DNA of 64,000 nt. Origin: Dehalococcoidales bacterium. Its GTDB lineage: Bacteria > Chloroflexota > Dehalococcoidia > Dehalococcoidales > Fen-1064. The stretch spans positions 876,034 through 940,033 of the forward strand of contig CP070842.1 in NCBI GenBank assembly GCA_020342155.1, given 5' to 3'. This document shows, in pieces, positions 1-26,982 of the stretch (position 1 is its first letter; each line of letters starts with the position of its first letter). The notes beneath the pieces were generated by a model. The model did not search any database. It was not told the origin of the DNA and saw only the letters and a program-made list of their open reading frames with translations. The position numbers and the translations under genes were made by a program.

Positions 1-1907
1 AGCTGTAGCGCCTTGGAGGGGCAATTCACTGTACAGGCACCGCATCCCTTGCAGAGTGCCTCATTAACTACGGCCAGTCTCTTCTTTGGGTCGACCTCGA
101 TGGCATTGTAGGCGCAGATGGCTTCGCAGAAACCGCAAGCACTGCATACTTCCTCGTCAACCGATGCGGTAGCCGCTTCCATCTCTACCCGACCTTTGGA
201 TATCAATTCTATCGCCCGGGCAGCCGCTCCGGTAGCCTGGGCTACTGTATCTGAGATATCCTTGGGGCCCTGGCAACAGCCGACAGCAAAGACACCATCC
301 AGCATTGTACCCACTGGGTCGAGCTTGGGATGCCGCTCGAGGAAAAAGCCATCGGCGCTACAACCCAGCAGGAATACACGCGAAATTTTATCCGTTTCGG
401 CGCGTGGCTGCATAGCTACGCTGAGGATAATCATGTCTACCGGTATTCGTATCAACGTCCCCAGCAGCGTATCTTCACCGACCACTATTAGCTTGCCCTT
501 CTCTTCGTCTTCCTGGGTTATATCAGTGACCTGGGCTACCTTACCCCGGACGAAATTTACACCGGCATCCGACGCCTCTTTGTAAAACTCCTCATGCCCC
601 TTACCGAAGCAGCGCATATCAATATACATCTGGTAGACATCGGCATCCAGTGTTTCCTTGAGGAAGCGGGCATACTTGAGGCTGTACATGCAGCACACCC
701 GTGAGCAGTATTGGCGGTAGTTTTCGTCCCGACTGCCAACGCAGTGGATGATGGCAACACTCTTGGGAGTAGAGCTATCCTTGAGGACGATATTACCACC
801 GGTTGGTCCGCTGGCACTGGCCATCCTCTCGAACTCGGGACTGGTAATAACATTATCGAATTTACCATAGCCGTACTGGGTGATTGGAGTGGGATCGAGG
901 GTATCATAACCGGTGGCGACGATGACAGCACCAGCCTCCACCTCTATTTCCTCATCTTCCTGCTCGTAATCAATCGCCTTGACCGGGCATGCCTCCTGGC
1001 AGATGGTGCAATCACCACTGAGAAAGTGATTACAGTGCTCGTGGTCAATGACGGGTATGTTGGGTACAGCTTCGGGGAACGGTCGGTAGATTGCCTTACG
1101 CTTGCTCAACCCGTGGTCGAACTCGCTGTCTACCTCGACAGGACATTTCTCCCAACAGGCACCGCAGCTATCGCACTTGGCCGCGTCGACATTACGGGCT
1201 TTTTTATTGATTATCGCTTTAAAGTTCCCGATATAGCCCGATAACTCGGTCACCTCGCTATAGGTCATCAGTTCGACGTACTCACTAGCGACCATCTGCT
1301 TCATCCTGGGGGCAAGAATGTCCATGGCCGGTTCCAGATACGGGAAAGTCTTGCCCAGCTGGGCCATACGGCCGCCGATGCTGGGTTCTTTCTCTACCAG
1401 AAATACTTTGTGCTCGGAGTCGGCTATTTCCAAGGCAGTCTGTATCCCGGCGATACCACCACCGACAACGAGGGTGTTGGGATTGACCGGGGCAAATCTG
1501 GTCTCCAGTGGGTCGCGGTAAAGAACACGCCTCACTCCGGCGGCTACCAGCGCCATCGCCTTCTCAGTAGCTGCCTGCTCGTCATGGCTATGCACCCACG
1601 AGCAAATCTCACGGATGGTGGCCATTTCACAGAGGTGCGGGTTCAGTCCGGCAGCCTGGCAGGCTTCCCGGAAAGTGCGGAGGTGCAGGGTGGGAGAGCA
1701 GGAACAGACCAGTACCCGGTTGAGGTCGAGTTCGCGGATATCGTCCTTTATCATATCCTGTCCCGGGTCGGAACACATGAAAGCATAGTGACGTGCCACG
1801 ACTACTGAATCAAGGCTCTGGGCGTATTCGGTTAGTTTCTCAACATCAAGGTAACCGGCAATGTTTGACCCGCAGTGACATATATATACTCCGACTCTTT
1901 TTTCCAT
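1..1907 (-). CDS. hdrA: HdrA-like heterodisulfide-reductase flavoprotein (paralogue 2). The 3' end runs off the window and the ORF is absent from the supplied track.
   Basis: Hand translation of the minus strand. ATG at 1907-1905 follows AAGGAAAGCGGG. I checked every codon from 1907 down to position 3 (635 codons) and found no in-frame stop. The product starts MEKRVGVYICHCGSNIAGYLD...VLVCSCSPTLH (HdrA N-terminal Cys domain). It continues with VVGGGIAGIQTAL (FAD), CDSCGACWEKCP and GDCTICQEACP (inserted ferredoxin), CVGSRDENYRQYCSRVCCMY, then CSACGFCEAICAYNAI / CKGCGACTVNCP (C-terminal ferredoxin). Confidence 0.85.
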   Translation of the reverse strand, partial: MEKRVGVYICHCGSNIAGYLDVEKLTEYAQSLDSVVVARHYAFMCSDPGQDMIKDDIRELDLNRVLVCSCSPTLHLRTFREACQAAGLNPHLCEMATIREICSWVHSHDEQAATEKAMALVAAGVRRVLYRDPLETRFAPVNPNTLVVGGGIAGIQTALEIADSEHKVFLVEKEPSIGGRMAQLGKTFPYLEPAMDILAPRMKQMVASEYVELMTYSEVTELSGYIGNFKAIINKKARNVDAAKCDSCGACWEKCPVEVDSEFDHGLSKRKAIYRPFPEAVPNIPVIDHEHCNHFLSGDCTICQEACPVKAIDYEQEDEEIEVEAGAVIVATGYDTLDPTPITQYGYGKFDNVITSPEFERMASASGPTGGNIVLKDSSTPKSVAIIHCVGSRDENYRQYCSRVCCMYSLKYARFLKETLDADVYQMYIDMRCFGKGHEEFYKEASDAGVNFVRGKVAQVTDITQEDEEKGKLIVVGEDTLLGTLIRIPVDMIILSVAMQPRAETDKISRVFLLGCSADGFFLERHPKLDPVGTMLDGVFAVGCCQGPKDISDTVAQATGAAARAIELISKGRVEMEAATASVDEEVCSACGFCEAICAYNAIEVDPKKRLAVVNEALCKGCGACTVNCPSKALQ

Positions 1908-1931: not shown

Positions 1932-4688
1932 TTAATTTCCTCCAGCCGCTACAGCTTCGGTTTTGGCACCGATTTCACCTCTGGCAACCAGGGCGAGAGC
2001 CTTGGCAGCCGCTCCTATCGCCTGCGCTACTGTATCCGGGATGTCCTTCGGTCCCTGGCAGCACCCGGCCATGAAAATACCATCGGTTGCAGTACCCATA
2101 AGGTCGAGCTTATAGTGTTTCTCCTCGAAGAAACCGTCCTTATCCTGCTCCAGTCCGAAGAGTTTAGCAATATCGCCGGCGTCGGCGCGCGGTTCGATGG
2201 CGATGCTAAGAATCACCATATCCACAGGCACACGTACTATCTGACCGAGCAGGGTATCCTCGCAGACCACAACCAGTTTGCCCTTCTCCTCGTCATTCTG
2301 AGCGATATCGGTGACCTGGGCAACCTTGCCACGGATGAAGTTGACGCCCTCTTCTGAGATGCGTTTATAGAATTCTTCATAGCCCTTACCAAAACAACGC
2401 ATGTCGATGTACATCTGGTAGACAGTGGCACCGGTCTTTTCCTCTATCAGGTGGGCGTGTTTGAGACCGTACATACAACATACGCGTGAGCAGTACTCGT
2501 GGTAGTTCTCATCACGGCTGCCGACGCAATTAATAATGGCAACACTCTGGGGGGTTGAACCGTCCTTCAGCATTACCTGTCCTTCAGTGGGTCCGGTGGA
2601 GCTTATCATCCGCTCCATTTCAAGGCTGGTAAATACGTTGTCAAACTTCCTATAACCGTACTGGGTCATCGGGGTGGGGTCGAAAAGATCGAAACCGGTG
2701 GTGACTATAATAGCTCCGACCTCTACATCCCGGTATTCGTCCTTCATGTTATGGTCAATAGCTTCACGTTCGCATGAAGCAATACAGGCTAAACATTCCG
2801 AGCACACGCCACAGTTGAGGCAGCGCTTGGCCTCTTCAATGGCTGTTTCCTCGGTGAAGCCGAGTTCGACTTCGGGGGAAGGTTTCCGTTGGGCTGCTTC
2901 GAGCACGGGCATTATTGCTCGGGCCTTCTTGACTACCCCTTCCGTGGGAACGTCTTTCACCCTTTCCCGGTGTTCCGGTCGGCCCTTGGACAGGTCCAGT
3001 TCTCCCCTGAGATAGCGGTCGATAGATATCGCCGCTTCCTTACCGGTAGCGACCACGCCGATAACATCGGCGGGTCCGGAAACGACATCTCCACCAGCAA
3101 AGACACCATCGATATTGGTATGAAGGGTAACCTGGTCAACAGAGACAGTTCCCCAGCTGGTGAACTCAAGCTGCTCGGGTAGCGTCTCTTTATTGACAGC
3201 CTGGCCGATAGCCATGATGACATTGTCAACATCTATCGTATACTCGGAGCCCTCGACTGGTACCGGGCGTCGGCGTCGGGAGGCATCAGCCTCACCGAGT
3301 TCCATCCGGATGCATTCGATACCGGTTACTTTACCATTGTCAGCCAGCACCTTGACCGGTGCTGCCAGTATATTGAAGACGATGCCTTCTTGTTCGGCCT
3401 CGTGAAGCTCCTCAGCAGCTGCGGGCATTTCATCCCGGGAGCGACGGTAGATGATGTTGACCTCTTTGGCTCCGAGGCGGTAAGCGACTCTGGCAGAGTC
3501 TATAGCCGCATTGCCCCCGCCGATTACGGCTACCCTGTTACCGATTTTGACTTTCCCTCCGGCATTGGCCTGTCTTAGAAAGTTGAGGGCGTTTAGCACA
3601 CCCTCCGCATCTTCTCCGGGTATGCCCATTTTCTGGCCGAGACCAGCACCGGCAGCGAGGAAGATGGCCTTGTAGCCATCGTTAAACAGGTCTTCCAGAT
3701 TTACTACCGTGCTGTTGCACTTGATTTCAACACCAAGCTCCTGTACGTAGGCAATCTCTTCGTCAACTATCTGGTTTGGTAATCTGTACTCGGGGATGCC
3801 ATAGCGTAATAGCCCGCCCGGCTCTGGTGCCGCTTCGAAGACAGTTACCGGGTAGCCTATCCGGACGAGGTCATAGGCACAGGCGATACCCGCCGGTCCG
3901 GAGCCAACAATAGCCACCTTTTCCTCGTGGGTTGGTTCTATTGTAGTCGCCTTCTCTCTGCCCACCGAGAGTTCATAGTCGGCCATGAAACGCTTCAGAT
4001 AACGGATGGCAATCGGTTCGTCTACCTTGCCTCTTTCGCACTCCGATTCACAGGGATGCATACACACCCGTCCGCAGACTCCGGCGAAAGGCATCGTTCT
4101 CCTCAGTACTTCCAGGGCCTCCTTGTATCTTCCCTGTGAGATGAGGGCAACGTAGCCTTGGGCATTGACACCTGCCGGGCACGCGACGCGGCATGGTGGC
4201 AGACCACGTTTGTCTATGGTGAAGACATTCGGTACTGCCTGGGCGAAGGGACGGTAGGCTGCCTGACGGTCGGCGAGACCAAGCTGCCATTCACTGGGTA
4301 CGAAAACGGGACAGACCTTGGCGCACTCGCCGCAGCCGGTGCATTTACTGCTATCGATGAACTTGGCCTTGTTGCGAATCCTGACCTTAAAATTACCCGC
4401 CGAGCCGGAGATATTGTCCACCTCGCTGCAGGTTATCAGCTCGATGTTCTTGTTGGAACCCACCTGGCTCATCTTGGGTGTGCCGATGCAGGAGGCACAG
4501 TCCAGTGTTGGGAATGTCTTGTCCAGTTGCATCATGCGCCCGCCGACTGTGGGCGACCTCTCTACCAGATAGACCTGGTGTTCAGCATCGGCTACCTCCA
4601 GGGCAGCCTGCATACCGGCAATGCCAGCACCAACTACGAGGACTCCAGGCTTGGTTTGGCCTCCGCTCTTTCCAGTTCTTTCAGCCAC
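1932..4688 (-). CDS. HdrA-like flavoprotein with an inserted GltD/NfnB-like NAD(P)H:FAD oxidoreductase module (918 aa chimera)
   Basis: The ends are HdrA-like: VVGAGIAGMQAAL, KTFPTLDCASCIGTPKM, CTGCGECAKVCP near the N-terminus and CVGSRDENYHEYCSRVCCMY, GCCQGPKDIPDTV near the C-terminus. Residues ~163-625 look like glutamate synthase small subunit / NfnB: CPAGVNAQGY, CGRVCMHPCESECERG, VAIVGSGPAGIACAYDL, GGLLRYGIPEYRLP, VAVIGGGNAAIDSAR, VFAGGDVVSGPADVI. It shares nucleotide-level similarity with the downstream paralogue, e.g. 2390-2420 vs 615-645. Confidence 0.85.
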   Translation of the reverse strand: MAERTGKSGGQTKPGVLVVGAGIAGMQAALEVADAEHQVYLVERSPTVGGRMMQLDKTFPTLDCASCIGTPKMSQVGSNKNIELITCSEVDNISGSAGNFKVRIRNKAKFIDSSKCTGCGECAKVCPVFVPSEWQLGLADRQAAYRPFAQAVPNVFTIDKRGLPPCRVACPAGVNAQGYVALISQGRYKEALEVLRRTMPFAGVCGRVCMHPCESECERGKVDEPIAIRYLKRFMADYELSVGREKATTIEPTHEEKVAIVGSGPAGIACAYDLVRIGYPVTVFEAAPEPGGLLRYGIPEYRLPNQIVDEEIAYVQELGVEIKCNSTVVNLEDLFNDGYKAIFLAAGAGLGQKMGIPGEDAEGVLNALNFLRQANAGGKVKIGNRVAVIGGGNAAIDSARVAYRLGAKEVNIIYRRSRDEMPAAAEELHEAEQEGIVFNILAAPVKVLADNGKVTGIECIRMELGEADASRRRRPVPVEGSEYTIDVDNVIMAIGQAVNKETLPEQLEFTSWGTVSVDQVTLHTNIDGVFAGGDVVSGPADVIGVVATGKEAAISIDRYLRGELDLSKGRPEHRERVKDVPTEGVVKKARAIMPVLEAAQRKPSPEVELGFTEETAIEEAKRCLNCGVCSECLACIASCEREAIDHNMKDEYRDVEVGAIIVTTGFDLFDPTPMTQYGYRKFDNVFTSLEMERMISSTGPTEGQVMLKDGSTPQSVAIINCVGSRDENYHEYCSRVCCMYGLKHAHLIEEKTGATVYQMYIDMRCFGKGYEEFYKRISEEGVNFIRGKVAQVTDIAQNDEEKGKLVVVCEDTLLGQIVRVPVDMVILSIAIEPRADAGDIAKLFGLEQDKDGFFEEKHYKLDLMGTATDGIFMAGCCQGPKDIPDTVAQAIGAAAKALALVARGEIGAKTEAVAAGGN

Positions 4689-4949
4689 AGCAGAACCTCC
4701 TGGCCAGTTGCCGAACCTATTTTATACTAACGCGCACCAGCCGTGCAATGCCCTCAGGATGGGCTGTGCTTTAGAGGTGAGCCGCTGACACAAGAAAACA
4801 GGGCACTCTTATTATACAGGGCACCCTGCCTCTTCCTCGGCTCTATCCTATCTCATTATAACCTAGTTCCTGTCAGCACGTAAAGTCACTTTCTCGAATA
4901 TTGTTTCAGCCGTCAGAACGAGGCTGTTTTCACATCAGGCACAGTGGGA

Positions 4950-6387: not shown

Positions 6388-6781
6388 CTGAAAAGCCTCC
6401 TCTATGTAAACGTGGCTGCGAATAATGTTAAACCCGGGGGCTCTCTGTGTCAAACGAGGTTAATTCCTGATGGGAGGTTTCGTCACTTTACTGGAGTATG
6501 GAAAAAGTCTTGACAATACCTTGCATCGGCTGGCATTATGGGACAGTTCCCGATAGTTAAAGGTAGGTTGTCTGACTGCTTCAGACGGTCTGAGAGGGGT
6601 GTGTGGTGTCCAATTTCGGTCTTCGTAAAGCTATATTAATATCCGTTGTTACATTGCTGAACTTGGTGCTACTGGACAGCAGGTGATGGCTGCTATGGAA
6701 GGTCATATCCTCGGTCAGGCAGAACTGGTTGGTACCTATCAAGGGTAGCCCACGAAGAACTCTCGATAAAGGAGATAAAAA

Positions 6782-7513
6782 ATGGGACGCTTTTTGAAAT
6801 GGATGGGCATAACGCTGGGAGTCCTGATTATTATTATCGTGCTGGTAGGTGGTTATTTCGGTCTGGTGCCCGGCGTGTCGAATCTTTTCGGCTCCCACAA
6901 GCCAAAAGACCTCGGGATAACGTACACCGAGGCAGACAGGCTGTCCGGACGTGCTAAGGCGGGGTGGGAGGTGATAGACCTCCCTTCGGACTTGCCGCCT
7001 GAAGAGAGCTTTAGCTATTCTGGGCAAAACGCTGTTGATGCTACTTTCAGCAATGCAGAATTGACGGCATGGGCGAATGATCCCTGGACCTATTTCCCGC
7101 TTTCGGATTGTCAACTAAGAGTGAACGACGATAACACGGTAGAGTTCTCCGGCAAGCTGAATATTGGCGTATTGCGGGATTGGATTGATGCCATGGGGGT
7201 GGCTGACGAGTATTCCGAGCTTATCGACGATTACCTGAGGTGGTTCATCTGGGGTAATCCGCCGGTATACGTCAAGTTGAGTGTTAACGTAGTTAATGGT
7301 CAGATACTGAATCCCCAGATACACGAGGCAAAAGTCGGGAGAATTTCTATCCCGGACAGTCTGATTCAGGACAACCTTTACAGGCTGGTCGATTATGCCG
7401 AGTGGCAGATGAACCATATCCCCGGGTTCTCTGTAGAGTCACTGGAATTTGTTGATGGGGGAGTAAGGTTCGTTGGTACCATGCCGGCGGTCGTTTCCCG
7501 GTCTGTCGAATGA
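6782..7513 (+). CDS. Membrane-anchored hypothetical protein (N-terminal TM helix)
   Basis: The ATG follows AAAGGAGATAAAAA. The N-terminal hydrophobic helix is ITLGVLIIIIVLVGGYFGLV, followed by a soluble domain. I recognise no family. Confidence 0.6.
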   Translation: MGRFLKWMGITLGVLIIIIVLVGGYFGLVPGVSNLFGSHKPKDLGITYTEADRLSGRAKAGWEVIDLPSDLPPEESFSYSGQNAVDATFSNAELTAWANDPWTYFPLSDCQLRVNDDNTVEFSGKLNIGVLRDWIDAMGVADEYSELIDDYLRWFIWGNPPVYVKLSVNVVNGQILNPQIHEAKVGRISIPDSLIQDNLYRLVDYAEWQMNHIPGFSVESLEFVDGGVRFVGTMPAVVSRSVE

Positions 7514-7541: not shown

Positions 7542-8306
7542 CTAGTCACTATGGTCCGTTGACTCTGAGTCAGGCTGGTTTTCGTCCTCTGATGGCTCCG
7601 GTTCCGTCTCTTTCTCTACTTCCGCGTCTTCCAAGCCTTGCCTTTCCTGGCCAGACTCCAGCAGGTGGCGGGCAATCATCTCGTAACACTCCCACTGTTC
7701 TCGGGATGGTGCCGTCCTCCTCGATTCCTGACCGAGTCCACTCTCCTGGTAGCTTCCTGATGATATTGCCCAGCACCAGAAATTGGGAACACTGCGTACC
7801 ATGATATCCTCGTTAAGCCTGATCAGGCTCTCTTTCAGCGGCGTGTCATTGTTCAGCCGGTCGAGGAGGTTCTCCTCCATATCTTCATCCCACTCTTCGT
7901 TCGGAGCGGCGATAACTCGTGTCCCCACGAAGTTAGCTGTCCAGTACAGGTCAATCACTCGCCCATACACAGACGCGTTTCTTTGTCGAGTTGACCGCAG
8001 TTCCAGATAACCGCCGCTGCGTACCCGGTGGTCAGGTACTACATAGACGTTAGTAAAGGTGGTTGACGCATACCGGCTTGCCGGGTGTTCAAGCATGTTA
8101 ATCCATTGTATCGGACTCTCGTGCACTTCTAGCAGGCCGAGAGAAGTACCAATAAGACCACCGGAGATACCCTCTTCATGCAAGCCTCGTTCTGACACCT
8201 GGACATTTAGACCTATGGTGCGTAGATGGGTACAGAGCCTATGCCTCGTCTTATCTTTGAATCTTCCTACTAATATCCTGTCGATTATCCTACCGAACAG
8301 GCTCAT
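7542..8306 (-). CDS. Hypothetical protein with acidic C-terminal tail
   Basis: 254-aa ORF convergent with 6782-7513. The C-terminus is EDAEVEKETEPEPSEDENQPDSESTDHSD. I recognise no family. Confidence 0.5.
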   Translation of the reverse strand: MSLFGRIIDRILVGRFKDKTRHRLCTHLRTIGLNVQVSERGLHEEGISGGLIGTSLGLLEVHESPIQWINMLEHPASRYASTTFTNVYVVPDHRVRSGGYLELRSTRQRNASVYGRVIDLYWTANFVGTRVIAAPNEEWDEDMEENLLDRLNNDTPLKESLIRLNEDIMVRSVPNFWCWAISSGSYQESGLGQESRRTAPSREQWECYEMIARHLLESGQERQGLEDAEVEKETEPEPSEDENQPDSESTDHSD

Positions 8307-8684
8307 TTAACGCTGCTCCTCATGTTCGGATTACATCACCGCTACAGATTATCTCGCATGCTCGCATTCGGAGTATAGTACTCCCTTGATGACCGTGTCA
8401 ACAAAGTAGGATGAGTTAATCTCGGGGAATGAGAAGGCAGTATTTATCTGTGCCAGAGTCATGTAACAAGAGTACTTGTTGACCCAACAACTTCGTGTCT
8501 TAATCCACTGGACAAACATCGCGATGTCTGTCCAGCTATACGTATAGTTATTTGATACATTTTCCCTTTTCTGTGGGATGATACGCACAAAAAATGAAAC
8601 TATTTCAAATGGGCAGAAACATTTTAACAACTGAATGGGCTATTAGTCAGTGAAGTATATTTCTTATGTCCACCATGCAACTCT

Positions 8685-8837
8685 CTAATAATCCACAGAG
8701 CTGTTGGCAAGGTTTAACGGATTGAAGCCATCGGTGTCCATTATATCAATCTCAGATTTACCATCCCTGTCGGATCTGAAAGCAATTCTACCACTCAACG
8801 TAGTAGTCATACTTGGATTGCGACAACTAACAACCAT
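8685..8837 (-). pseudogene. Orphan single PD40 (TolB-type beta-propeller) repeat fragment, 50 codons
   Basis: Hand-translated sub-threshold ORF: MVVSCRNPSMTTTLSGRIAFRSDRDGKSEIDIMDTDGFNPLNLANSSVDY. The core GRIAFxSDRDGxxEIxxMDxDGxNxxxL matches the PD40 repeat pattern. It is far too short to be a propeller. Confidence 0.3.
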
Positions 8838-9148
8838 GGCTATTAGTCGTGAAAGAGTAATTGCATAGGTGAACAGTTACGATTTAATCACATATCTGTT
8901 ATCAGCTATATTTTGATGTCATTCATGTACTGGAACTCAAGTTCAGTTCTATAACTCAGGGCTGTCAATGTAGAGTAAAGGGGACTTTTTTAGCGTGAGA
9001 ATGCACAAATTACCTAATCACCGAATCCGCTAGGTGTACTCACTAAGATGAGCAAGCTGGCGGGTGTAAGACATTCTTACCAGTTTTAGTATAGTAATGA
9101 GAAGAACAGTTTTATATCTCGGTTCTTTTTTAAAAAGGAGGTGTCGAG

Positions 9149-9400
9149 ATGGCAGAGATTCCACAGAATATAAAGTTTTTACTTTTTGGATTCGGCCCCA
9201 AAATGCATGCGCAAATGGCATTAATTGCCAATCTCCTGGGTATCGTTACAACTGTACTGGGGATCATCAGTGCTGCCACGAAGAATCCACTTTGCCTGGG
9301 TACAACTAGCTGGTTTCTTTTAACCATTATTTTCTTCATATGGGGCCTATCATTTTGGTTTGCTGCGTATTTCGGGACAAAGGAGGGATATACCAAATAG
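9149..9400 (+). CDS. Small integral membrane protein (2-3 TM), unknown function
   Basis: A strong SD, AAAGGAGGTGTCGAG, precedes the ATG. The 83 aa include hydrophobic stretches ALIANLLGIVTTVLGIISAA and WFLLTIIFFIWGLSFWFAAYF. Confidence 0.6.
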   Translation: MAEIPQNIKFLLFGFGPKMHAQMALIANLLGIVTTVLGIISAATKNPLCLGTTSWFLLTIIFFIWGLSFWFAAYFGTKEGYTK

Positions 9401-9520
9401 TATTAACTCAACAGATTTTACTGGAATCTAGCGCTCTATTCATACCGCTTATTCCTGCCTGTTGTTGATTAGAGCATATTCATCTATTCCATTTGCTATA
9501 TTGGAGGAAGAGAGGAAGAA

Positions 9521-10711
9521 ATGACTAAAAACATAGCAATATCAGGTTTTGCCAAGCAAGGATTTAAAGCAGTGCAGGAAGCATTCATCAAGAATTTCGA
9601 GCGTTACCATGAGCTTGGAGCTGCCTGTTGTATCTACTACCGGGGTGAGAAAGTGGTCGACCTGTGGGGCGGCGTCCGTAACAAGGCGAAAAACGAACCC
9701 TGGGAAGAGAATACGATGGCTCTCGTCGCATCAACCACCAAGGGACTCGCCGGCCTATCAATGGCACTTGCTCACTCCCGCAAGTTATTTGATTACGACG
9801 AGCGTGTCTCGAAGTACTGGCCGGAGTTTGCACAGCAAGGGAAGGAAATGATTACAATACGACAACTACTTTCACACCAGGCTGGATTGTATGCATTGGA
9901 TGTGCTTCTGGACAAGAGTCTGGTTGCCAACCTTGACCAGCTGGCTGTTGTACTAGCGCAGCAGAAACCGGAATGGGAGCCGGGCACAAGACAAGCATAC
10001 CACGCCATCACACTTGGTTTCTACGAAAGCGAGTTGCTTCGTCGAGTCGATCCTGAACATCGCTCTCTAGGACAATTCTTCCAAGAGGAAATAGCTAGTC
10101 CACTGGGTCTTGATTTCTATATTGGGCTCCCTGAAGAGATTCCCAACGCCAGACTTGCAACACTTCATAGGGCTAATCTGGCAGGTGCGTTTTTCACCAT
10201 GCCTATCCCATTAGCGCTCTCGGCTATGAATCCGCGCTCACGGTTCCGCCGCTCGTTGTTGGGATCGTTGCCAGAAGAAAGAGATCATATCTACGCTCGA
10301 AATTTAGAGGTGCCGGCAGGAGGGGGTGTTGGAACCGCCCGCGCCATTGCTCAGGCGTATAGCGTATTCGCAACGGGCGGTCAAGAACTTGGTATACGTG
10401 AGGAAACACTACAACAGTTAATGGCATCTGCAGTTCCACCACTTCATGGATTCTATGATGAATGCCTGAAAGTAGAGATTGCTTTCTCACTTGGTTTCAT
10501 GAAACCAAGCCCTGAGAACACCTTCGGTCATCCAACCTCGTTTGGAGCCCCGGGAACAGGGGGGTCCTTTGGTTTTGCTGACCCCCATGCCAGGATTGGT
10601 TACGCGTACATCCCAAATCGGGTTCAATTCTACTTGACAGACCCAAGAGAAAAAGCCTTACGGACTGCAATGTATCATTCGGTTGGCGAGAAAGATCCAT
10701 ACCATGCTTAA
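9521..10711 (+). CDS. Serine hydrolase, beta-lactamase/esterase (class C / EstB-like) family
   Basis: The SxxK nucleophile motif is ASTTKGLAG. Length and overall layout fit the PF00144-type fold. SD is GGAGGAAGAGAGGAAGAA. Confidence 0.85.
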   Translation: MTKNIAISGFAKQGFKAVQEAFIKNFERYHELGAACCIYYRGEKVVDLWGGVRNKAKNEPWEENTMALVASTTKGLAGLSMALAHSRKLFDYDERVSKYWPEFAQQGKEMITIRQLLSHQAGLYALDVLLDKSLVANLDQLAVVLAQQKPEWEPGTRQAYHAITLGFYESELLRRVDPEHRSLGQFFQEEIASPLGLDFYIGLPEEIPNARLATLHRANLAGAFFTMPIPLALSAMNPRSRFRRSLLGSLPEERDHIYARNLEVPAGGGVGTARAIAQAYSVFATGGQELGIREETLQQLMASAVPPLHGFYDECLKVEIAFSLGFMKPSPENTFGHPTSFGAPGTGGSFGFADPHARIGYAYIPNRVQFYLTDPREKALRTAMYHSVGEKDPYHA

Positions 10712-10853
10712 GGAGAGTAACCCAACGATAGCAATTAGGTAAATTAGTCTTGGTAGCAACTACAGAGAGATTAAGAGATTACTTACTCACCTGCGGCATC
10801 ATCATTTTGCCGCTTCATGGTAGAATCGAATAATTGGAACGGAATACAGACAA

Positions 10854-10946
10854 ATGAAGAAGTGGCAAAAGATACTGATTATAGTACTCGGTCTTTCCAT
10901 TTTGCTTTTCGCCATTGGGTATATCTTCTGTGAAATCATTTTTTAA
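10854..10946 (+). CDS. Possible 30-aa hydrophobic micropeptide
   Basis: Hand-read ORF MKKWQKILIIVLGLSILLFAIGYIFCEIIF, below the track cutoff. TGGTAGAAT (extended -10-like) lies ~35 nt upstream. Speculative. Confidence 0.2.
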   Translation: MKKWQKILIIVLGLSILLFAIGYIFCEIIF

Positions 10947-11279
10947 TGTGACCTAACAAATATTGTCTGGGCTAACCTTGACATTACTCTGTTGTTCGCA
11001 ATCTCCTCATCAGGTCATACCAGCCTACAGCTCCTGAGAATATCATGACTGAGATAATTACTTAAAGGGTAGTATTTTTTATGGGAGCAGGTCGTATAGT
11101 CTCAGGAGGATGCAGAGATAGTAGTGCATACGTAAGAAGCCAATGCATAGAAAAGGAACATCTTCTTGAACAAACATCGGGATGACGATGTGGATGTGAA
11201 TATTAAAGACTTACACTTGTATCAAGTGTATCAAGGTCAATTGAAAAGGTATACATTCTGTACTAGAGTATGACGGTAA

Positions 11280-11609
11280 TTAGCAGGACCGCATAATCAG
11301 GACGGTTGAGACTATCGCCAGCGCGACCAGAAGTAATGCGATTAATGCCGCTCCCATAAATACATACCGTATTGGCAGGCGCAACTGTACCGTGTCTCTT
11401 GGCTTTGGGATCTTTGGAAGTTGTCTTTGCAGGGCCTCTCTAAGGGTGAGGTCTCCATTTATGGACTGGTCTTCCAGTCTTTCGTGCTCATCAATACGTC
11501 GTGAGGCAGTGTTTTCGACAGATGGGATATCCTTCTCCAGCCAGTATTCATAAAGTCTCTGGAATGTTCTTCTTGCCCCTCTTTTCCGCAGGTTATCGAG
11601 TATCTTCAT
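11280..11609 (-). CDS. Small tail-anchored membrane protein, unknown function
   Basis: 109 aa. The N-terminal part is soluble and charged. A single C-terminal TM is YVFMGAALIALLLVALAIVSTVLIM. It is divergent from the tubulin-like gene. Confidence 0.55.
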   Translation of the reverse strand: MKILDNLRKRGARRTFQRLYEYWLEKDIPSVENTASRRIDEHERLEDQSINGDLTLREALQRQLPKIPKPRDTVQLRLPIRYVFMGAALIALLLVALAIVSTVLIMRSC

Positions 11610-11775
11610 GTGGCATTTCCCCCCGGTAACGGAACTGTAGTTTCACTCAGTGTATCTAAGCCGACTGTTCCTGTCAATGCTTTATTGCGCTGGCAAAGAC
11701 TATGTATGAGGCTGGTTAACCGTGACTTCAATACTGGCTCACTAGTACTTTCGGGCTAATTTCTAGTATAAAGTA

Positions 11776-11804
11776 TTGACACCAGGTGTAGTTATGTATA
11801 GAAT
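11776..11804 (+). promoter_or_regulatory. Near-consensus sigma-70 promoter for the tubulin-like gene
   Basis: TTGACA (11776-11781), a 17-nt spacer, then TAGAAT (11799-11804). It lies ~58 nt upstream of the TTG start at 11863. Confidence 0.5.
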
Positions 11805-11862
11805 ACGCATATATAGTAAGTAAAGTGGAGCTGGTAAGATAAAGCCGGTAATGGAGTGACGT

Positions 11863-13038
11863 TTGAAATTACTGGTAATTGGTTGTGGGCAGTGCGGTGG
11901 TCGACTTGCTGATGAGTTCGCACGACGTGACAAAAGAGCACGCACAGATCGCGGCACTGAGATAGTTACAGAAGCCCTGGCTATCAACACGGATGTTGCG
12001 GATCTAAGCGGGCTGACCTTTATCAAACCCGACCACCGTCACCGGGTTCTCATCGGAGGTCGAAAGTCGGGTGGTCACGGTGTTGGCAAGATAAACGAAC
12101 TGGGCGCTGAGATAGCCAGGGAAGAAGGTGACCGGGTTTTAGATGGTGTAGCGCGGGCACAACAGCGCTCGGATACCGATGCCTTTTTAATGATTGCTGG
12201 TGCTGCCGGTGGCACTGGCTCCGGGGCGATTGCCGAGCTGGCGCAGCAGGTAAAGGAACGTTACGTAGACAAGCCGGTATATGCGCTTGTTGTTCTTCCT
12301 TTCCGCTACGAGGAGTTGACAGAGGATAGGTCTATCTACAATGTAGGGACATGCCTCAAGTCAATCTATCTGGTAGCGGATGCCGTATTTCTGGTGGATA
12401 ATCAGAGGTACGTCACGGACAAGGATTCCATCAGAAATAACCTGGCCCGGATTAATGCTCACGTGGTTGATCCGTTTTATAACTTGCTCTGTGCTGGCGA
12501 AGAAACGGACTCCAAGTTCATCGGCTCAAAGGTTCTGGATGCCGGCGATATAATTCAGACCCTATCAGGGTGGTCTGTTATCGGGCATGGTAGAGCATCG
12601 GTCTCACGAAGCAAACTCCCCTTCGGAGGGAAGTTGGATTTCAGGAATGCGGTTGCTGAAACCGACAAAGGAATTCATGCTATGAATCAGGCCAAGTCGG
12701 CTTTATCGCTGAAATGCCGACCTGACGATGCACGGCGAGCACTCTACCTCCTGACGGCACCTCATGAGCAAATGAGTATGGACCTGATAAGAGACCTGTC
12801 CTCATCCCTGAGAAGCATTGCCACCGATGCTACAATACGTAGTGGTGATTATCCCAGGGGGAAGGATTTTCTTGATGTTACCCTGGTACTATCTGAGCTG
12901 ACCAACTCGACGAAAATCTCGGATTACTTTAGCAGGACTCTCAGGTATATTTATCTTAAGAAGCGCAGGCGAGGAGAGATTGGAGAGCAGCAGGTCGGAT
13001 TTGACGAAGCCCTCCGTGATATCCCTCTGCTACTGTAA
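11863..13038 (+). CDS. Tubulin/FtsZ-superfamily GTPase, CetZ-like
   Basis: TTG start after GGAGTG. MKLLVIGCGQCGG is the T1 loop. GGHGVGKINELGAEIAREEGD matches my memory of the CetZ block KGHGVGxxNELGAEIAEED. MIAGAAGGTGSGA is the tubulin signature GGGTGSG. PVYALVVLP, FLVDNQ, VLDAGDIIQTL (T7-like acidic loop) and RSGDYP near the C-terminus also fit. The protein is collinear with haloarchaeal CetZ1 as I recall it. Confidence 0.8.
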   Translation: MKLLVIGCGQCGGRLADEFARRDKRARTDRGTEIVTEALAINTDVADLSGLTFIKPDHRHRVLIGGRKSGGHGVGKINELGAEIAREEGDRVLDGVARAQQRSDTDAFLMIAGAAGGTGSGAIAELAQQVKERYVDKPVYALVVLPFRYEELTEDRSIYNVGTCLKSIYLVADAVFLVDNQRYVTDKDSIRNNLARINAHVVDPFYNLLCAGEETDSKFIGSKVLDAGDIIQTLSGWSVIGHGRASVSRSKLPFGGKLDFRNAVAETDKGIHAMNQAKSALSLKCRPDDARRALYLLTAPHEQMSMDLIRDLSSSLRSIATDATIRSGDYPRGKDFLDVTLVLSELTNSTKISDYFSRTLRYIYLKKRRRGEIGEQQVGFDEALRDIPLLL

Positions 13039-13645: not shown

Positions 13646-15340
13646 CTAGTCTGTTTCGTCTTCCTCTTCTTCGGTTTCGTCGTCAGTCTGTCGTGTCTGG
13701 CCTGCTGCATACATTCTCGTAAGGGACTCCAGGCGGTCCTCGATATTAGCCTGCCTTCTACTCTTTTTCGATGTGGTTTTAGCAGCTTTACGTTCTGTCT
13801 TCTTGCTGGTGGCCTCAGAGACGTCGCCGACGTCTTCGAGGGCATCGCTAATCTCGTCGGCCTGGCTGTCAGAGGGTTGTTTTACCATCTCCAATTCTTC
13901 GGCGATATGGCTGACCTCCTGCCCAAGACTGACTGACTGTCCACCACGCCCCAGCAGCTTCTCGAATGCTCCTAACCATGCCTGGGCGGCTTCTTCGGCT
14001 CCCCTCTTGGATGCTTCGGTAGCTTCTCTGGCGGCTTGCAGAGATGCCTCGGCGGCTTTTTTAGCTGATTGACTTACTTCTTGTGCCCGACTGATAGCTT
14101 CCTGCGACGCTTGTGCCGATGTCTCAGCGGCCTCTCTAGCCGTTTCACTAGCTCTCCGGGCCATCTCCACGGACTCTTTCGACGCTGCCACCCACGAAGC
14201 AACTGTTTCAATGGCTGATTTGCTTATTTCCTCAACCTGTTTTATCGCGTCCTGTGATGCTCTTTTTGATTCCTCAACTGCTTCCCAGACTGATTTGCCC
14301 ATCTCCTCAGCCTTGCTTATCGCCTCCTGTGATACTCTTCGCGCCTCCTCGGCCGCTGTTTCGGCAACCTTGGAGGTTTCCGTAGCCTTGTCTATCGCTT
14401 CCTGCGAGGCTTGTCTGGACTCCTCAATGGCTGTTTCAGCAGTCCTGGTCATCTCTTCCGCCTTGCCCATCACTTCTTGGGACATCTTCTTTGATTCCTC
14501 AACGGTTGTCTCGGCAGCCCTGGTCATATCTTCCACCTTACTCATCACCTCCTGGGATGCCTTTGCCGATTCCTCAATGGCCGTCTCGACTGTTCTTGTC
14601 AGCTCTTCTGCCTTGTCTGTTGCCTGTTGAGACACCCTCTTTGATTCCTCGATTGCTTCCTCGGATGACCTGGTAGCACTTATTGCCTTCTCGAAGGCCC
14701 CGGTGTATGTCCTGGTCGCCTCCTCGGCTGATCTGGCGATGCTCTCAGCCTTACGCACCGCTTCCTGTGATGCCTGTACCGACGTCTCGACAGCCATCCG
14801 GGTTGTTCTACCTATGTCCTCGGCTCGGCCTACTGCTTCCTGAGAAGTGGCTACTGCCTGCTCGGCGGTCTCCAGGGCCATCTGAGCTGTTTTCTCTGCT
14901 TTTTCGCTAGCTTCTTGTGAAGTTTTTGTAGCTACCTCGGCGGCTTCTTTGGCCAGCCTGATTGCATCCTCTGCCCGGCTTATCGTCTTCTGTGACGTGT
15001 CTTTTGCCTCCTCAGCCGCATTTAGTGCTTTGCCAAAAGCCCTATTAGATGCGTCTAGCTCCTCTTTAGCTGCTTGGCTTGCTTCTTCTGCCTTGCTTAT
15101 TGCCTCCTGCGAGGCAAGCGATGCTACCTCAGCGGCTTCTTTGGCCTGCTGGCTGATCTCTTCAGCCCTGGCAATCATCTGCTGGGATATTTTTACTGAC
15201 TCCGCTGCAGCTTCCTTGGCCATTCGACCCAGCTTGTCGGCCTTGGCCACCACCTCCTCAAAGTCCCAGGTATCAGCAGGTGTGGGCGAGGGTTCGTCTA
15301 GTCGCTCGATTTCCGATGGCTCCATTTTCTTGCCTGTCAT
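13646..15340 (-). CDS. Large repeat coiled-coil protein (564 aa) with a basic segment and an acidic tail
   Basis: About 16 units of a 25-aa repeat (xxEESxxASQEAIxKAEExxxxAxx) span aa ~41-450. A basic stretch TSKKTERKAAKTTSKKSRRQ follows, then the acidic tail TDDETEEEEDETD. Confidence 0.75.
   Translation of the reverse strand: MTGKKMEPSEIERLDEPSPTPADTWDFEEVVAKADKLGRMAKEAAAESVKISQQMIARAEEISQQAKEAAEVASLASQEAISKAEEASQAAKEELDASNRAFGKALNAAEEAKDTSQKTISRAEDAIRLAKEAAEVATKTSQEASEKAEKTAQMALETAEQAVATSQEAVGRAEDIGRTTRMAVETSVQASQEAVRKAESIARSAEEATRTYTGAFEKAISATRSSEEAIEESKRVSQQATDKAEELTRTVETAIEESAKASQEVMSKVEDMTRAAETTVEESKKMSQEVMGKAEEMTRTAETAIEESRQASQEAIDKATETSKVAETAAEEARRVSQEAISKAEEMGKSVWEAVEESKRASQDAIKQVEEISKSAIETVASWVAASKESVEMARRASETAREAAETSAQASQEAISRAQEVSQSAKKAAEASLQAAREATEASKRGAEEAAQAWLGAFEKLLGRGGQSVSLGQEVSHIAEELEMVKQPSDSQADEISDALEDVGDVSEATSKKTERKAAKTTSKKSRRQANIEDRLESLTRMYAAGQTRQTDDETEEEEDETD
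13991..15220. repeat. Intragenic 75-bp tandem periodicity (25-aa repeat array)
   Basis: The plus-strand motif GAYTCCTCRA recurs at 14268, 14418, 14493, 14568 and 14643, in exact 75-bp phase. SQEA-type motifs occur at aa 52, 77, 141, 166, 191, 237, 262, 287, 312, 337, 362, 387 and 412. Confidence 0.7.
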
Positions 15341-15416
15341 CCTTTGCCTATTCTAAAACAGGCGGATTACTTTATCAATAGTTTTTTACAGGGTGTTTTA
15401 TCTGTGATAATGGTGC

Positions 15417-15425
15417 ATTATATCA
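15417..15425 (-). promoter_or_regulatory. Possible extended -10 element (TGATATAAT) for the coiled-coil operon
   Basis: The minus strand reads TGATATAAT ~77 nt upstream of the ATG at 15340. I saw no good -35. Confidence 0.25.
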
Positions 15426-15696
15426 CTCTTGCCCAGCGGAAGCCAGTTTATACAAACAAGCATTACGGTTCGGGATAATACTCACCGAACCCGCGTCTAG
15501 AGGGCATACTGCTGCCGATGTTTCACATTCGTAGGATTTACGCCTTACAGTATCTAAGTATCACTTAATAATATTGTATTTCACCAGTATGCGGAGTCAC
15601 ATCCACCAAAAGTACTAGTCTCTCTAGCCGATTAGTAACCTTTTTCGTTTGCACGCGCTGAAGGCAGTGGTTACAATTGTCTGTGGGAAATCTGTA

Positions 15697-17301
15697 ATGT
15701 CAGATATAAGCAAGTACCGGTTGATTTTAATGGCAGTCCTGGTGCCCATGACGGCAGTAGTCAGCGGGTTATACTGGGGTAGCTGGTGGAAAGAAGCATC
15801 AGCGCAGACAGATGGGACTTTGCAGTCGGATATTAGTAGTTTCATCTCCGAAAGAATGGCGGTTGAGAATATTCCCGGTGTGGCGGTGGTCGTTGTTCAG
15901 GACGCTAAGGTTATCTATCTGGAGGGATTCGGCACAGCCAGTCTCAAGGATCCGTCCCCGGTGACTCCCCAAACTGTGTTTGACTTGGCTTCGTGTAGTA
16001 AGTCATTCACCGCACTGGCGGTGCTTCTTCTTAGAGATGATGGACTGGTGGACCTGGACTTGCCTGTCAGCCACTATCTACCAGACTTCAAAACGGCTGA
16101 CCCTGAAACTGCTGAAGAGATTACGGTACGTTACCTGTTACATCATACGAGTGGTTTACCGGGAACGTTTGCCGAGCCTCTGGCCTTTCATTCGGGTGAT
16201 GATGCTATGGATAAGCTGGTGGCATCGCTGGACAGGGTACACCTGAATCGTGCTCCCGGGTTATTATTTGAATACAGTAATCTGAATTACAGCTTGCTTG
16301 GTGCTGTCATCGATGAAGTGTCCGGGGTCAGCTTTGAAGAATATCTGGAGCAGCGGGTCTTTGTCCCTCTGGGTATGATGCGTACCACTATGATTCCTAG
16401 CGAAGCTGATGTGATGGACAGGGCAGATGGTCACCAGCTCCTGTTCGGGCATGTTGTCACCAGAAATATTCCCGTCTATCGCAGTGTTGTCCCGGCAGGC
16501 TGGGTCATGTCTACCGCGGAGGATATGGGGAAGTGGCTCATCGTGCAACTGAGTGGTGGACGTATTGATGGTCGGCAGGTGGTACCATCGGAAACCATTA
16601 TGGAACTGCACACTCCAGGTGTGAGTTACGAGCAGAAGGGTGAGGAAGTTGGCTATGGTATGGGCTGGTTCATCGGTCTTTCTGATGCCGACTTGTCGCT
16701 CGTCTGGCACGGCGGGGATACGTCAAATTTCGCTGCCGACATGGTCATGGTACCTGAACATCAACTGGGAGTGGCTGTACTGGTGAACAGTCAGAATAGC
16801 TCTAGGGTGCATAGTCTTGCGCCTGATGTTGCCAGCCTGATTCTGGGGAAGGAATTGGTGCTGCCGACGGCTCCGTGGTGGGGCTCCTGGCGGAGTGCGG
16901 ACACTATGGCGATAGCTGCGGCAGCAACTTCCGTGGCGGCTTTCATTGCTTTGGTAGTTTACTTCTGGTGGCGTTGGCGGCGATTTCGCCTTTGGCGGAC
17001 TGCCTATCTGAGGACCATGCGCAGGAGAACGCTGAGGATATGGCGGATGGCACTGCCACTGACACCTCTGGTACTACTGGCAACCGCGGTGACCGCTATA
17101 TGGGTAGTTGTATGGTTGTTGTTTGGCTTTAACCTGTTCCGGGTGTTGATGCGGTTTGGCAGCTTTGCCCCTCCCGGTGTCTGGATTGCGGGGTGGATGA
17201 CTTTTGGCGTTATCAGTATATGGGCGCTCGCTCTGGCTGGTCAGACGCTCTTTCGGTACTGGATAAGACACAGGGTCCGAAGGTTGCGTTCTCAGAGCTG
17301 A
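15697..17301 (+). CDS. Beta-lactamase-fold serine hydrolase with N-terminal anchor and C-terminal polytopic membrane domain
   Basis: SxxK motif is ASCSKSFTALAV, with YSNLNY and HGGDT boxes. The C-terminal ~140 aa have 4 hydrophobic helices separated by W/R-rich linkers (WWRWRRFRLWRTAYLRTMRRRTLRIWRM). I preferred the ATG at 15697 over the TTG at 15649. Confidence 0.8.
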   Translation: MSDISKYRLILMAVLVPMTAVVSGLYWGSWWKEASAQTDGTLQSDISSFISERMAVENIPGVAVVVVQDAKVIYLEGFGTASLKDPSPVTPQTVFDLASCSKSFTALAVLLLRDDGLVDLDLPVSHYLPDFKTADPETAEEITVRYLLHHTSGLPGTFAEPLAFHSGDDAMDKLVASLDRVHLNRAPGLLFEYSNLNYSLLGAVIDEVSGVSFEEYLEQRVFVPLGMMRTTMIPSEADVMDRADGHQLLFGHVVTRNIPVYRSVVPAGWVMSTAEDMGKWLIVQLSGGRIDGRQVVPSETIMELHTPGVSYEQKGEEVGYGMGWFIGLSDADLSLVWHGGDTSNFAADMVMVPEHQLGVAVLVNSQNSSRVHSLAPDVASLILGKELVLPTAPWWGSWRSADTMAIAAAATSVAAFIALVVYFWWRWRRFRLWRTAYLRTMRRRTLRIWRMALPLTPLVLLATAVTAIWVVVWLLFGFNLFRVLMRFGSFAPPGVWIAGWMTFGVISIWALALAGQTLFRYWIRHRVRRLRSQS

Positions 17302-17329
17302 ACTACGCAGTTTGATATGGTAGAAGATA

Positions 17330-17403
17330 TGGGCGGTAGAGGACTTGAACCTCTGACCCCCTGCGTGTAAAGCAGGTGCTCTAACCAACTGAGCTAACCG
17401 CCC
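17330..17403 (-). tRNA. tRNA-Val (anticodon TAC)
   Basis: Folded by hand. Acceptor GGGCGGT/ACCGCCC, D stem GCTC/GAGC, anticodon stem CCTGC/GCAGG with loop TTTACAC, T arm AGAGG-TTCAAGT-CCTCT. CCA is not encoded. Confidence 0.9.
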
Positions 17404-17407
17404 ATAA

Positions 17408-17484: not shown

Positions 17485-17495
17485 TAAAATAAAAG

Positions 17496-26420: not shown

Positions 26421-26480
26421 TAACTTCATGCTGAAAGCTGATTTTGCTGATATTCGATAAAAGGTTCTCAGGAAAGAAGA

Positions 26481-26912: not shown

Positions 26913-26982
26913 TATCAAGAATCCTTTGATAGTTCCTTTTCAGTTCGTGTGCAAAGAATATTACTGTGAACTTGGGGAGTTA

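Follow-up and report, generated by a model that had tools for sequence, protein, structure and literature searches.

The locus

The DNA analysed here, referred to below as the window, is a stretch of 64,000 nt from the metagenome-assembled genome (MAG) of a Dehalococcoidales bacterium (assembly GCA_020342155.1, contig CP070842.1, positions 876,034 to 940,033). It carries a gene for a 918-aa protein, hereafter the chimera, in which the frame of the heterodisulfide reductase subunit HdrA is interrupted by a complete NAD(P)H-binding module of the GltD/NfnB type, followed by a second HdrA gene, termed HdrA'. In anaerobes, complexes built on HdrA are central machines of flavin-based electron bifurcation. 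The chimera belongs to a widespread and already described family (HdrL, type III HdrA or Moorella-type HdrA), in which it probably represents that half of an asymmetric pair of HdrAs which binds NAD(P)H.

The open reading frame (ORF) of the chimera starts with GTG and is preceded by a 328-nt non-coding stretch that holds one promoter-like match (Table 1). The gene of HdrA' (1907..<1, minus strand) starts 24 nt past the chimera stop codon and leaves the window with about 24 aa still to come. A protein identical to the chimera over its whole sequence (P0001, 100%) is deposited from a Dehalococcoidales MAG, where it lies on a 2.3-Mb contig, under the label “FAD-dependent oxidoreductase”.

Table 1. 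Positions of the chimera, its parts and adjoining elements in the window
Feature	Position	Strand	Basis
Sigma-70-like promoter match, TTTACG-18-TATAAT	4855..4884	-	consensus match only
Shine-Dalgarno sequence AGGAGG	4696..4701	-	direct reading; 7 nt 5' of the GTG start
Chimera coding sequence, HdrA/NfnB-like, 918 aa (trimmed HdrL-type, “type III HdrA A9-like”)	1932..4688	-	ORF, Pfam, NCBIfam and PDB matches
TrxR-like FAD domain, first part (residues 13-110; GAGIAG at residues 20-25)	4359..4652	-	equals 5odc_A residues 146-240
D63-C64-A-S-C67, equivalent to Cys194/Cys197 of methanogen HdrA	4488..4502	-	constant alignment offset of 130
Inserted-ferredoxin motif 1, C116-x2-C119-x2-C122-x3-C126-P	4308..4343	-	Pfam and PDB alignment
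GltD/NfnB-like insert (residues 162-628), an NAD(P)H:Fe-S flavoprotein module, StnC-like and circularly permuted by alignment	2805..4205	-	Pfam, phmmer, Foldseek
FAD Rossmann motif of the insert, G262-S-G-P-A-G267	3888..3905	-	alignment
NAD(P)H Rossmann motif, G390-G-G-N-A-A395, then Y414-R-R-S-R418 after beta-2 (NADPH-type)	3435..3521	-	as in StnC/NfnB
Permuted NfnB N-terminal motif, R622-C623-L-N-C626	2811..2825	-	insert residues 447-475 against T. maritima NfnB 15-43
Inserted-ferredoxin motif 2, C629-x2-C632-x2-C635-x3-C639	2772..2804	-	HdrA homology restarts at 5odc_A residue 293
TrxR-like domain, second part (residues 640-905; [4Fe-4S] ligands C721/733/737/738; E692/K743)	1974..2771	-	5odc_A alignment; signature from PMC9430772
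Partner HdrA' (first 635 of ~659 aa; leaves the window)	1..1907	-	alignment to 5odc_A

Architecture of the chimera

Pfam searches of the chimera returned Fer4_20 at residues 164-240 (3.3e-21) and Pyr_redox_2 at residues 257-542 (7.4e-43), a combination that marks the small subunit of glutamate synthase, NfnB and domain II of DPD, with HdrA-type FAD and Fer4 matches on both sides. In a phmmer search of the PDB, HdrA of M. thermolithotrophicus (5odc_A) aligned in two blocks, its residues 146-291 with chimera residues 16-161 and its residues 293-572 with 629-908. This two-block alignment places the foreign segment between the two motifs of the inserted ferredoxin domain (C116/119/122/126 and C629/632/635/639), with the segment ending one residue before motif 2. 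A preliminary description of the DNA, made from its letters alone, had read both ends of the protein as HdrA and the middle (about residues 163-625) as a GltD/NfnB-like unit with two Fe-S and two Rossmann motifs, inserted exactly between the two CxxCxxCxxxC motifs. The alignments bear this out throughout: Pfam and PDB matches put the module at residues 162-628, and the alignment with NfnB and StnC locates all four of its motifs.

In terms of the reference structure, the chimera begins at HdrA-equivalent residue ~143 and stops at ~572, and hence has neither the N-terminal Cys-rich [4Fe-4S] domain nor the C-terminal 2x[4Fe-4S] ferredoxin domain of HdrA, as had also been noted earlier; the alignment is confined to 5odc_A residues 146-572. 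The upstream DNA is non-coding, and the next gene begins 24 nt past the stop codon. The retained HdrA frame is otherwise conserved in detail. The cluster ligands of the thioredoxin-reductase-like (TrxR) domain, C721/733/737/738, match those of 5odc_A (Cys386/399/403/404 equivalents), and E692 and K743 correspond to E356 and K409; both sets, as well as C64/C67, are invariant in an alignment of 52 homologues. The E356/K409 pair has been described as the signature of a bifurcating flavin (Appel et al. 2021, quoted in PMC9430772).

Automatic annotation does not bring out this composition. The chimera scores far below the NCBIfam cut-offs for HdrA (NF040770, 517.8 against 1100 bits; NF041778, 384.4 against 1400; NF041891, 358.2 against 1300) and above that of NF009410 (PRK12771, “NAD(P)-binding protein”; 527.3 against 516 bits), with residues 158-658 covering profile positions 42-543 of 566. 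The NF009410 match accounts for the uninformative public labels “NAD(P)-binding protein” and “FAD-dependent oxidoreductase”, which mask insert-bearing HdrA genes. In an AlphaFold2 (AF2) monomer model the predicted local distance difference test (pLDDT) reaches 85-94 over residues 240-560, that is, in the insert, and is moderate elsewhere. A Foldseek search with this model recovered the same two sets of structures as the sequence search and no PDB entry spanning both the HdrA and the NfnB-like module.

The inserted NAD(P)H module

Chimera residues 154-635 match GltD-like NADPH-binding domains, including 9bov_A (2.9e-133) and StnC (8oh5_C), and also NfnB (4ylf_B, 1.1e-102; Foldseek TM-score of the insert 0.79, normalised by target). 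With T. maritima NfnB the insert shares 43% identity, and it contains the two Rossmann motifs (FAD and NADPH) and the two [4Fe-4S] motifs of the NfnB/GltD type, the latter spread over C166/C170, C205/209/213/217 and C623/C626. Their order is not that of NfnB. According to the HMMER alignment, insert residues 13-412 correspond to T. maritima NfnB residues 46-463, and insert residues 447-475 to NfnB residues 15-43 with the EAxRCLxC motif. This alignment makes the insert a circular permutation of NfnB, with the N-terminal motif of NfnB moved to the C-terminal end of the insert; the linear NfnB/GltD order with an N-terminal RCLxC was not found in it. The same permuted layout occurs in StnC and in Bfu-type NfnA subunits, and a plain NfnB insertion was rejected in favour of a StnC-type cassette.

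The permutation has a structural corollary. The first NfnB cluster motif is assembled, in the NfnB alignment, from C623/C626 at the C-terminal end of the insert and C166/C170 at its N-terminal end, and the second consists of C205/209/213/217. Since the ligands of one NfnB-type cluster come from both ends of the insert, the NfnB-type clusters must adjoin the HdrA ferredoxin clusters, whose two motifs flank it in the 5odc_A alignment. An arrangement of this kind fits a cassette that is plugged in for electron entry. StnC carries the same cassette in a NuoG-like host, where it serves as a non-bifurcating NADPH entry to a chain of clusters (PMC10482914).

As regards the nucleotide, the GGGNAA...YRRSR motif of the chimera is that of NADPH-binding StnC and NfnB, from which we infer that the chimera represents the NADPH side of its family and would use NADPH rather than NADH. 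Two flavours of this Rossmann motif occur in the related loci L006-L085, aligned to chimera residues 386-424: YRR(S/T) and an acidic C(L/I)E, the latter for example in L056, L060, L062, L063, L066, L071-73, L080 and L084. The acidic CLE motif, present in a subset of the fused relatives, is typical of NADH sites. This distribution suggests that nucleotide specificity has switched within the insert-bearing HdrA family.

The partner HdrA' and the reciprocal pattern

HdrA' aligns end to end with 5odc_A (1.2e-203) and is 82% identical to the second gene of the Dehalococcoidia locus L001. The N-terminal Cys domain and both CxxCxxCxxxC motifs at the C-terminus are present, the inserted ferredoxin domain is intact, and HdrA' keeps the TrxR-domain cluster ligands and the flavin signature (E360/K411). 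At the position of NDC194SIC197IL in HdrA, it reads LEPAMDIL, and the chimera LDC64ASC67I. The preliminary description had already noticed that the downstream paralogue possesses both terminal domains and has lost the DCxxC that the chimera keeps, and had taken this to suggest an obligate heterodimer; the pattern is confirmed by the end-to-end match and by the alignment with Cys194/Cys197.

The meaning of this reciprocity follows from work on canonical HdrA, in which Cys197 of one protomer (Sec197, i.e., selenocysteine, in Methanococcus HdrA) contacts, by ligating or bridging it, the N-terminal-domain [4Fe-4S] cluster of the other protomer, on the route from FAD to the low-potential branch (PMC9012536, PMC13518236). 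By the logic of Chadwick et al. 2022, the two genes of the window form an asymmetric pair: the chimera has the Cys197 equivalent and no N-domain, and HdrA' shows the reverse. On these sequence grounds the chimera and HdrA' very probably assemble as a heterodimer, since dozens of genomes encode both halves as one fused protein with their order unchanged.

Distribution of insert-bearing HdrAs

The breadth of the family was surveyed with one genome per GTDB species, keeping the best 80 matches, which come from more than 15 phyla, and mapping five HdrA/insert segments onto all ORFs of the loci. The insert is present in all 80 species genomes, among them Chloroflexota, Desulfobacterota, Bacillota, Acidobacteriota, Aminicenantes, Gemmatimonadota, Spirochaetes, Thermotogae, Acetothermia, Bathyarchaeia, Hadarchaeota and others. 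Three forms can be distinguished, denoted here by their segments (N, N-terminal domain; T1 and T2, first and second TrxR parts; CC, the Cys-Cys pair; CtermFd, C-terminal ferredoxin domain). Form A, symmetric and full-length, is N-T1(CC)-insert-T2-CtermFd (12 genomes). The commonest, form B, is fused into one ORF of ~1490 aa, T1(CC)-insert-T2-N-T1(no Cys)-T2-CtermFd (~45 genomes), and form C, in the remainder, is encoded by two genes as in the window. Forms B and C follow one rule without exception: N- and C-terminal domains are absent from the half with the insert, which carries Cys-Cys (or Sec at position 197), and the other half is the reverse. The fusion of the halves in ~45 of 80 genomes, together with this complementarity, lends strong indirect support to the heterodimer proposed earlier. 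The same search argues against the preliminary description on another point: it had called the architecture unusual, and the fusion proves to be common in the survey and to have been published as HdrL, Moorella HdrA and type III HdrA, so that it largely represents a common, characterised family.

In 13 fused HdrL loci of the Desulfobacteraceae type (L030, L031, L034, L035, L037, L044, L049, L051, L057, L064, L069, L074 and L078), the Cys197 position is occupied by an in-frame TGA, ~98 codons 5' of the insert, in the context DKTFPTNDCAM-TGA-I/VISPK. This indicates that the codon is read as selenocysteine, as in M. maripaludis HdrA (U197). Genes for potential partner subunits accompany the family: MvhD occurs in 61 of the 85 related loci, mostly directly downstream, HdrB in 34, HdrC in 29 and an FrhB-like gene in 27.

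The operon in related Dehalococcoidia

Six independent Dehalococcoidia contigs, whose chimera and partner orthologues are 73-82% identical to those of the window, share a constant order of eight genes: the chimera (913-921 aa), HdrA' (657-662 aa), a Moorella-like fused double HdrA (1001-1005 aa), MvhD (144 aa), an FrhB-like Fe-S protein (376 aa), HdrC (~195 aa), HdrB (~288 aa) and an HdrD/TfrB-like protein (382 aa). The third gene (L001 14781-17798, with equivalents in L004, L006, L086 and L087) encodes T1(CC)-T2-N-T1(no Cys)-T2-CtermFd with no GltD insert. From this segment order the double HdrA is predicted to be self-complementary, and one Dehalococcoidia operon would thereby encode two different asymmetric HdrA units.

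In three loci (L004 6598-9672, L005 and L042 6587-9700), NuoE-like, NuoF-like and Fer2 genes, that is, a NADH module of the HydBC/Bfu type, lie directly upstream of the chimera, and would be a second pyridine-nucleotide entry module beside the Hdr operon. No such genes occur upstream of the chimera in the window.

Proposed mechanism and alternatives

Taken as the NAD(P)H-binding half of an asymmetric pair, the chimera would pass electrons from NAD(P)H to the FAD of the insert, through its two [4Fe-4S] clusters to the clusters of the chimera's own ferredoxin domain, and onwards along a one-electron wire to the HdrA flavin. By homology, HdrA' would supply the mobile arm and the chimera Cys67 beside its own flavin; with the arm kept and Cys194/197 missing in HdrA', the result would be a pseudo-heterodimer with a single arm/Cys197 junction. 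[quoted passage not shown] The most likely reaction would be NADPH-dependent bifurcation to ferredoxin and an HdrB-bound disulfide (or a similar acceptor), or its reverse, confurcation; bifurcation, direction of flow and HdrB substrate are all put forward by analogy with known Hdr complexes.

Several points weigh against this reading. The inserted ferredoxin domain serves canonical HdrA as its low-potential exit, whereas here NAD(P)H electrons would have to enter the flavin through it, and no heterodisulfide substrate is known in Dehalococcoidia. The window ends inside HdrA', and MvhD and HdrBC are predicted for this genome from its relatives. For the host organism the case for the complex is indirect, through gene fusion in other genomes. 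The AF2 monomer model has a mean pLDDT of 74 and a predicted TM-score (pTM) of 0.58 and is poor precisely in the Cys64/67 loop and the ferredoxin linker. Finally, the sole assayed relative, the fused Moorella HdrA, takes NADH and not NADPH: the recombinant protein is reported to oxidise NADH, assayed as NADH:benzyl viologen activity (PMC9430772).

The position of the insert can also be read in the opposite sense. In methanogen HdrA, ferredoxin or polyferredoxin docks exactly where the insert sits (PMC13518236, PMC12054007), and NAD(P)+ might then be the terminal acceptor, the module capping the low-potential exit, for example in a thiol- or FrhB-substrate-driven NADP+ reductase or in a complex capable of confurcation only; confurcation from NADPH and thiols was indeed proposed by the ANME-1 authors (PMC9012536). 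We regard this as unlikely, since HdrA' keeps a free inserted ferredoxin domain, suggesting that ferredoxin is still a substrate, and since Moorella HdrA was assayed in the NADH-oxidising direction (PMC9430772); the direction itself is not readable from sequence.

The 43% identity of the insert to T. maritima NfnB raises a different prospect, namely that its NfnB-like FAD is itself bifurcating and that two bifurcating flavins are joined by their low-potential branches, as already suggested for ANME-1 HdrA9-11 (PMC9012536). The insert keeps R302, equivalent to R201 of NfnB, a residue whose role is discussed in PMC10482914. The same Arg is, however, R239 of StnC, whose FAD has been shown to be non-bifurcating, and R302 was dropped as a test of bifurcation, being shared by bifurcating and non-bifurcating flavins (PMC10482914). 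The insert is moreover nearer to StnC and Bfu-type NfnA (1e-133) than to NfnB and shares their permuted layout, and neither the window nor the operons of relatives contain an NfnA (PyrK-like) homologue that could act as high-potential partner, or a GltB homologue. Two bifurcation sites are thus rather improbable.

Even less credible is a chimera that acts independently of HdrA', as a homodimer or monomer and as a simple oxidoreductase between NAD(P)H and ferredoxin or some acceptor, the complementarity being a coincidence of paralogue decay. Both proteins do retain FAD motifs and TrxR-domain clusters, and minimal sHdrA-like proteins without extra domains exist (6tjr_A, 349 aa). Coincidence, however, would have to account for a reciprocal pattern that all split and fused forms share over many phyla and that arose at least twice, for the 24-nt spacing of the genes, and for Cys64/67, whose invariance among the homologues is hard to explain without the N-domain cluster of a partner. 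An assembly artefact, a pseudogene or a mis-joined ORF, conceivable in principle for a MAG, was excluded as having practically no chance of being correct, given the intact ORF with its ribosome-binding site, the synteny in six contigs and more than 50 protein clusters of 843-940 aa from independent assemblies, which share the trimmed architecture and the same ends at 67-100% identity.

Origin of the Dehalococcoidia pair

The relationships among the forms were examined with neighbour-joining distance trees (220-872 columns). The window chimera clusters with form A, beside a Dehalococcoidia form-A protein, and outside the large form-B clade. For the second TrxR segment, the tree unites the chimeras of Dehalococcoidia with their partners in a single clade (80% of 200 bootstraps), within which the chimeras (100%) and the partners (96%) are each monophyletic, and the second halves of fused proteins, including the 1005-aa double HdrA of the operon, form a separate ancient clade (87%). 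The N-domain of HdrA' is closest to the N-domains of Dehalococcoidia canonical and form-A HdrAs (62-63% identity), against at most 52% for the second halves of form B.

The tree groupings, the N-domain identities and the ferredoxin domain inserted in HdrA' together suggest a lineage-specific duplication, convergent with the ancient fused form. It is tempting, if still tentative, to propose from these comparisons that with the Dehalococcoidia pair the asymmetric HdrA dimer was invented anew, independently and more recently. A full-length, symmetric HdrA with the NfnB-like module would have been duplicated in tandem, after which one copy would have shed its N- and C-terminal domains and the other its insert and Cys194/197. 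Derivation of the split form by fission of the fused one was rejected: in the trees the chimera falls among the full-length symmetric forms, with the partner's TrxR domain as sister to its own. Instead of a separate origin, old gene conversion between the neighbours, before the Dehalococcoidia lineages diverged, may have produced the same grouping. If the duplication is real, the pseudo-dimer would offer an NADPH site and a ferredoxin site together, unlike the fused Moorella/HdrL form, and the operon could yield a supercomplex of two different asymmetric HdrA units, one of them the co-encoded double HdrA.

Pairs of neighbouring HdrAs occur elsewhere in the family. In L007 (2982-8320, Dehalococcoidia) and L061 (7584-12928, Hadarchaeota), a canonical Cys-Cys HdrA lies directly upstream of a full-length insert-bearing HdrA, and in each pair the TrxR segments are mutual closest relatives (100% bootstrap). 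Their sequences suggest repeated local duplication or gene conversion in the insert-bearing HdrA family.

Other features of the window

On the 5' side of the chimera the window carries GNAT and methyltransferase genes, and ORFs 6581-7114, 7115-7417 and 7542-8306 (minus strand) gave no family match. The remainder is occupied by housekeeping genes (argJ/D/G/H, RecG, MutS, DnaG, ArgRS, GroEL, two carboxyltransferases, FakA/DegV) and by a cluster of three tRNAs at 17329-17582 (minus strand; Val(tac), Arg(gcg), Leu(cag)). Rfam and tRNA scans gave no match related to the chimera locus.

Three stretches, 8001-12000, 26001-28000 and 36001-38000, have a GC content of 0.44-0.48, against ~0.53 elsewhere in the window, and may be acquired DNA. 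The first of them holds a beta-lactamase-family ORF (9521-10711) and a CetZ-like gene (11863-13038, plus strand). The latter encodes a 391-aa protein of the tubulin/FtsZ superfamily with a CetZ C-terminal domain (PF00091, 1.3e-27; PF21011, 5.5e-17) that falls far under the FtsZ cut-off (49 against 295 bits). Its best solved relatives are 4b46_A (1.6e-42), 4b45_A and 3zid_A, which we take to be archaeal CetZ structures; CetZ is regarded as an archaeal family, and the copy described here lies in a Dehalococcoidales MAG. A 564-aa ORF at 13646-15340 (minus strand) had no Pfam or NCBIfam match, and the AT skew in its region reaches -0.31 (14001-16000).

Significance and relation to known systems

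The survey places NAD(P)H-plugged HdrA well beyond ANME-1 and sulfate reducers, in well over 15 phyla including the abundant subsurface Dehalococcoidia, for whose physiology the operon points to a putative NADPH-linked bifurcating or confurcating Hdr complex with a thiol/disulfide substrate. The complementarity of Cys/Sec197 and N-domain holds without exception in fused and split forms and has seemingly arisen more than once, an argument for functional selection of one arm/Cys197 junction per dimer. To our knowledge, no structure of the HdrL/type III HdrA family has been solved and only one member has been assayed.

With canonical methanogen HdrA (5odc_A, 8rvu, 7bkb) the chimera shares the TrxR-like FAD domain and its cluster, both inserted-ferredoxin motifs, Cys194/197 and the E/K signature. 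It differs in lacking an N-terminal domain as well as a C-terminal ferredoxin domain and in the 467-aa insert, and canonical HdrA is a symmetric homodimer. The insert itself is best matched by StnC (8oh5_C) and the large subunits of Bfu-type NfnABC (9bov_A, 9n5u_A), with E values of 1e-117 to 1e-133 and 42-46% identity; the circular permutation (RCLxCG after the flavoprotein body), the NADPH motifs and the placement of the module within a host Fe-S domain are common to all, whereas the host there is not HdrA but a subunit like NuoG/FdhF in a bifurcating enzyme of the HydBC type.

The chimera has the feature by which HdrL and type III HdrA are defined, a GltD/NfnB-like unit with FAD, NAD(P)H site and 2x[4Fe-4S] interrupting the inserted ferredoxin domain (PMC2702500, PMC9012536, PMC12054007). 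Under the name HdrL, the “heterodisulfide reductase/glutamate synthase fusion” of sulfate reducers was described in 2009 (PMC2702500), and a HdrABC/HdrL cluster (Sfum_0819-0824) with MvhD and an FdhB-like Fe-S protein was found by proteomics to be abundant in Syntrophobacter fumaroxidans grown with sulfate (PMC5947623). In Desulfobacterium autotrophicum and S. fumaroxidans, HdrL likewise combines HdrA with a GltD-like NAD(P)H unit, in a cluster with mvhD, an FdhB/FrhB-like gene and hdrABC; the Desulfobacterales relatives, however, are symmetric full-length or fused with Sec at 197, whereas the chimera is trimmed and has Cys.

In archaea, an NfnB insertion in the ferredoxin domain was reported for HdrA9-11 of ANME-1 in 2022, and the heterodimer argument from the complementarity of Cys197 and N-domain was published there for tandem and fused HdrAs (PMC9012536). 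A 2025 survey with structure predictions defined the “type III HdrA” classes A9, A9-TRX-C and A10, deriving A9 from the N-less, Cys197-bearing class A6 and treating A9-TRX-C as the fused version (PMC12054007). These proteins, including HdrA9-11 of ANME-1 and Bathyarchaeia, have an insertion of ~500 aa of the GltD/NfnB type, and the A6-derived A9 has the trimmed architecture of the chimera. Those of ANME-1 and Bathyarchaeia are archaeal and lie in methane-metabolism gene clusters; nine sequences were reported in that literature, whereas the bacterial family is far larger in the present survey. The published assignment of NADH was based on GxGxxG, whereas the nucleotide Rossmann motif of the chimera is GxGxxA followed by YRR.

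A close parallel in architecture is the MetFV-HdrABC-MvhD complex of Moorella thermoacetica, whose 1487-aa HdrA was described with exactly the form-B architecture (PMC9430772). In it, as in fused proteins of ~1490 aa from Syntrophales, Clostridia, Acidobacteria, Anaerolineae and others, the domain order of the first half is that of the chimera, the second half, with N-domain and C-terminal ferredoxin domain and without Cys197, resembles HdrA', and MvhD adjoins. The differences are nevertheless clear. The Moorella-type form is one polypeptide and that of the window two genes; its second half is devoid of the inserted ferredoxin domain that HdrA' keeps; its halves belong to two anciently separate clades, whereas the two genes of the window are mutual closest relatives; and it uses NADH, whereas the chimera carries the NADPH-type YRRSR motif. 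The present analysis thus extends the picture of this family without changing it, and its fresh angle is an evolutionary one only, the tentatively proposed duplication in the Dehalococcoidia.

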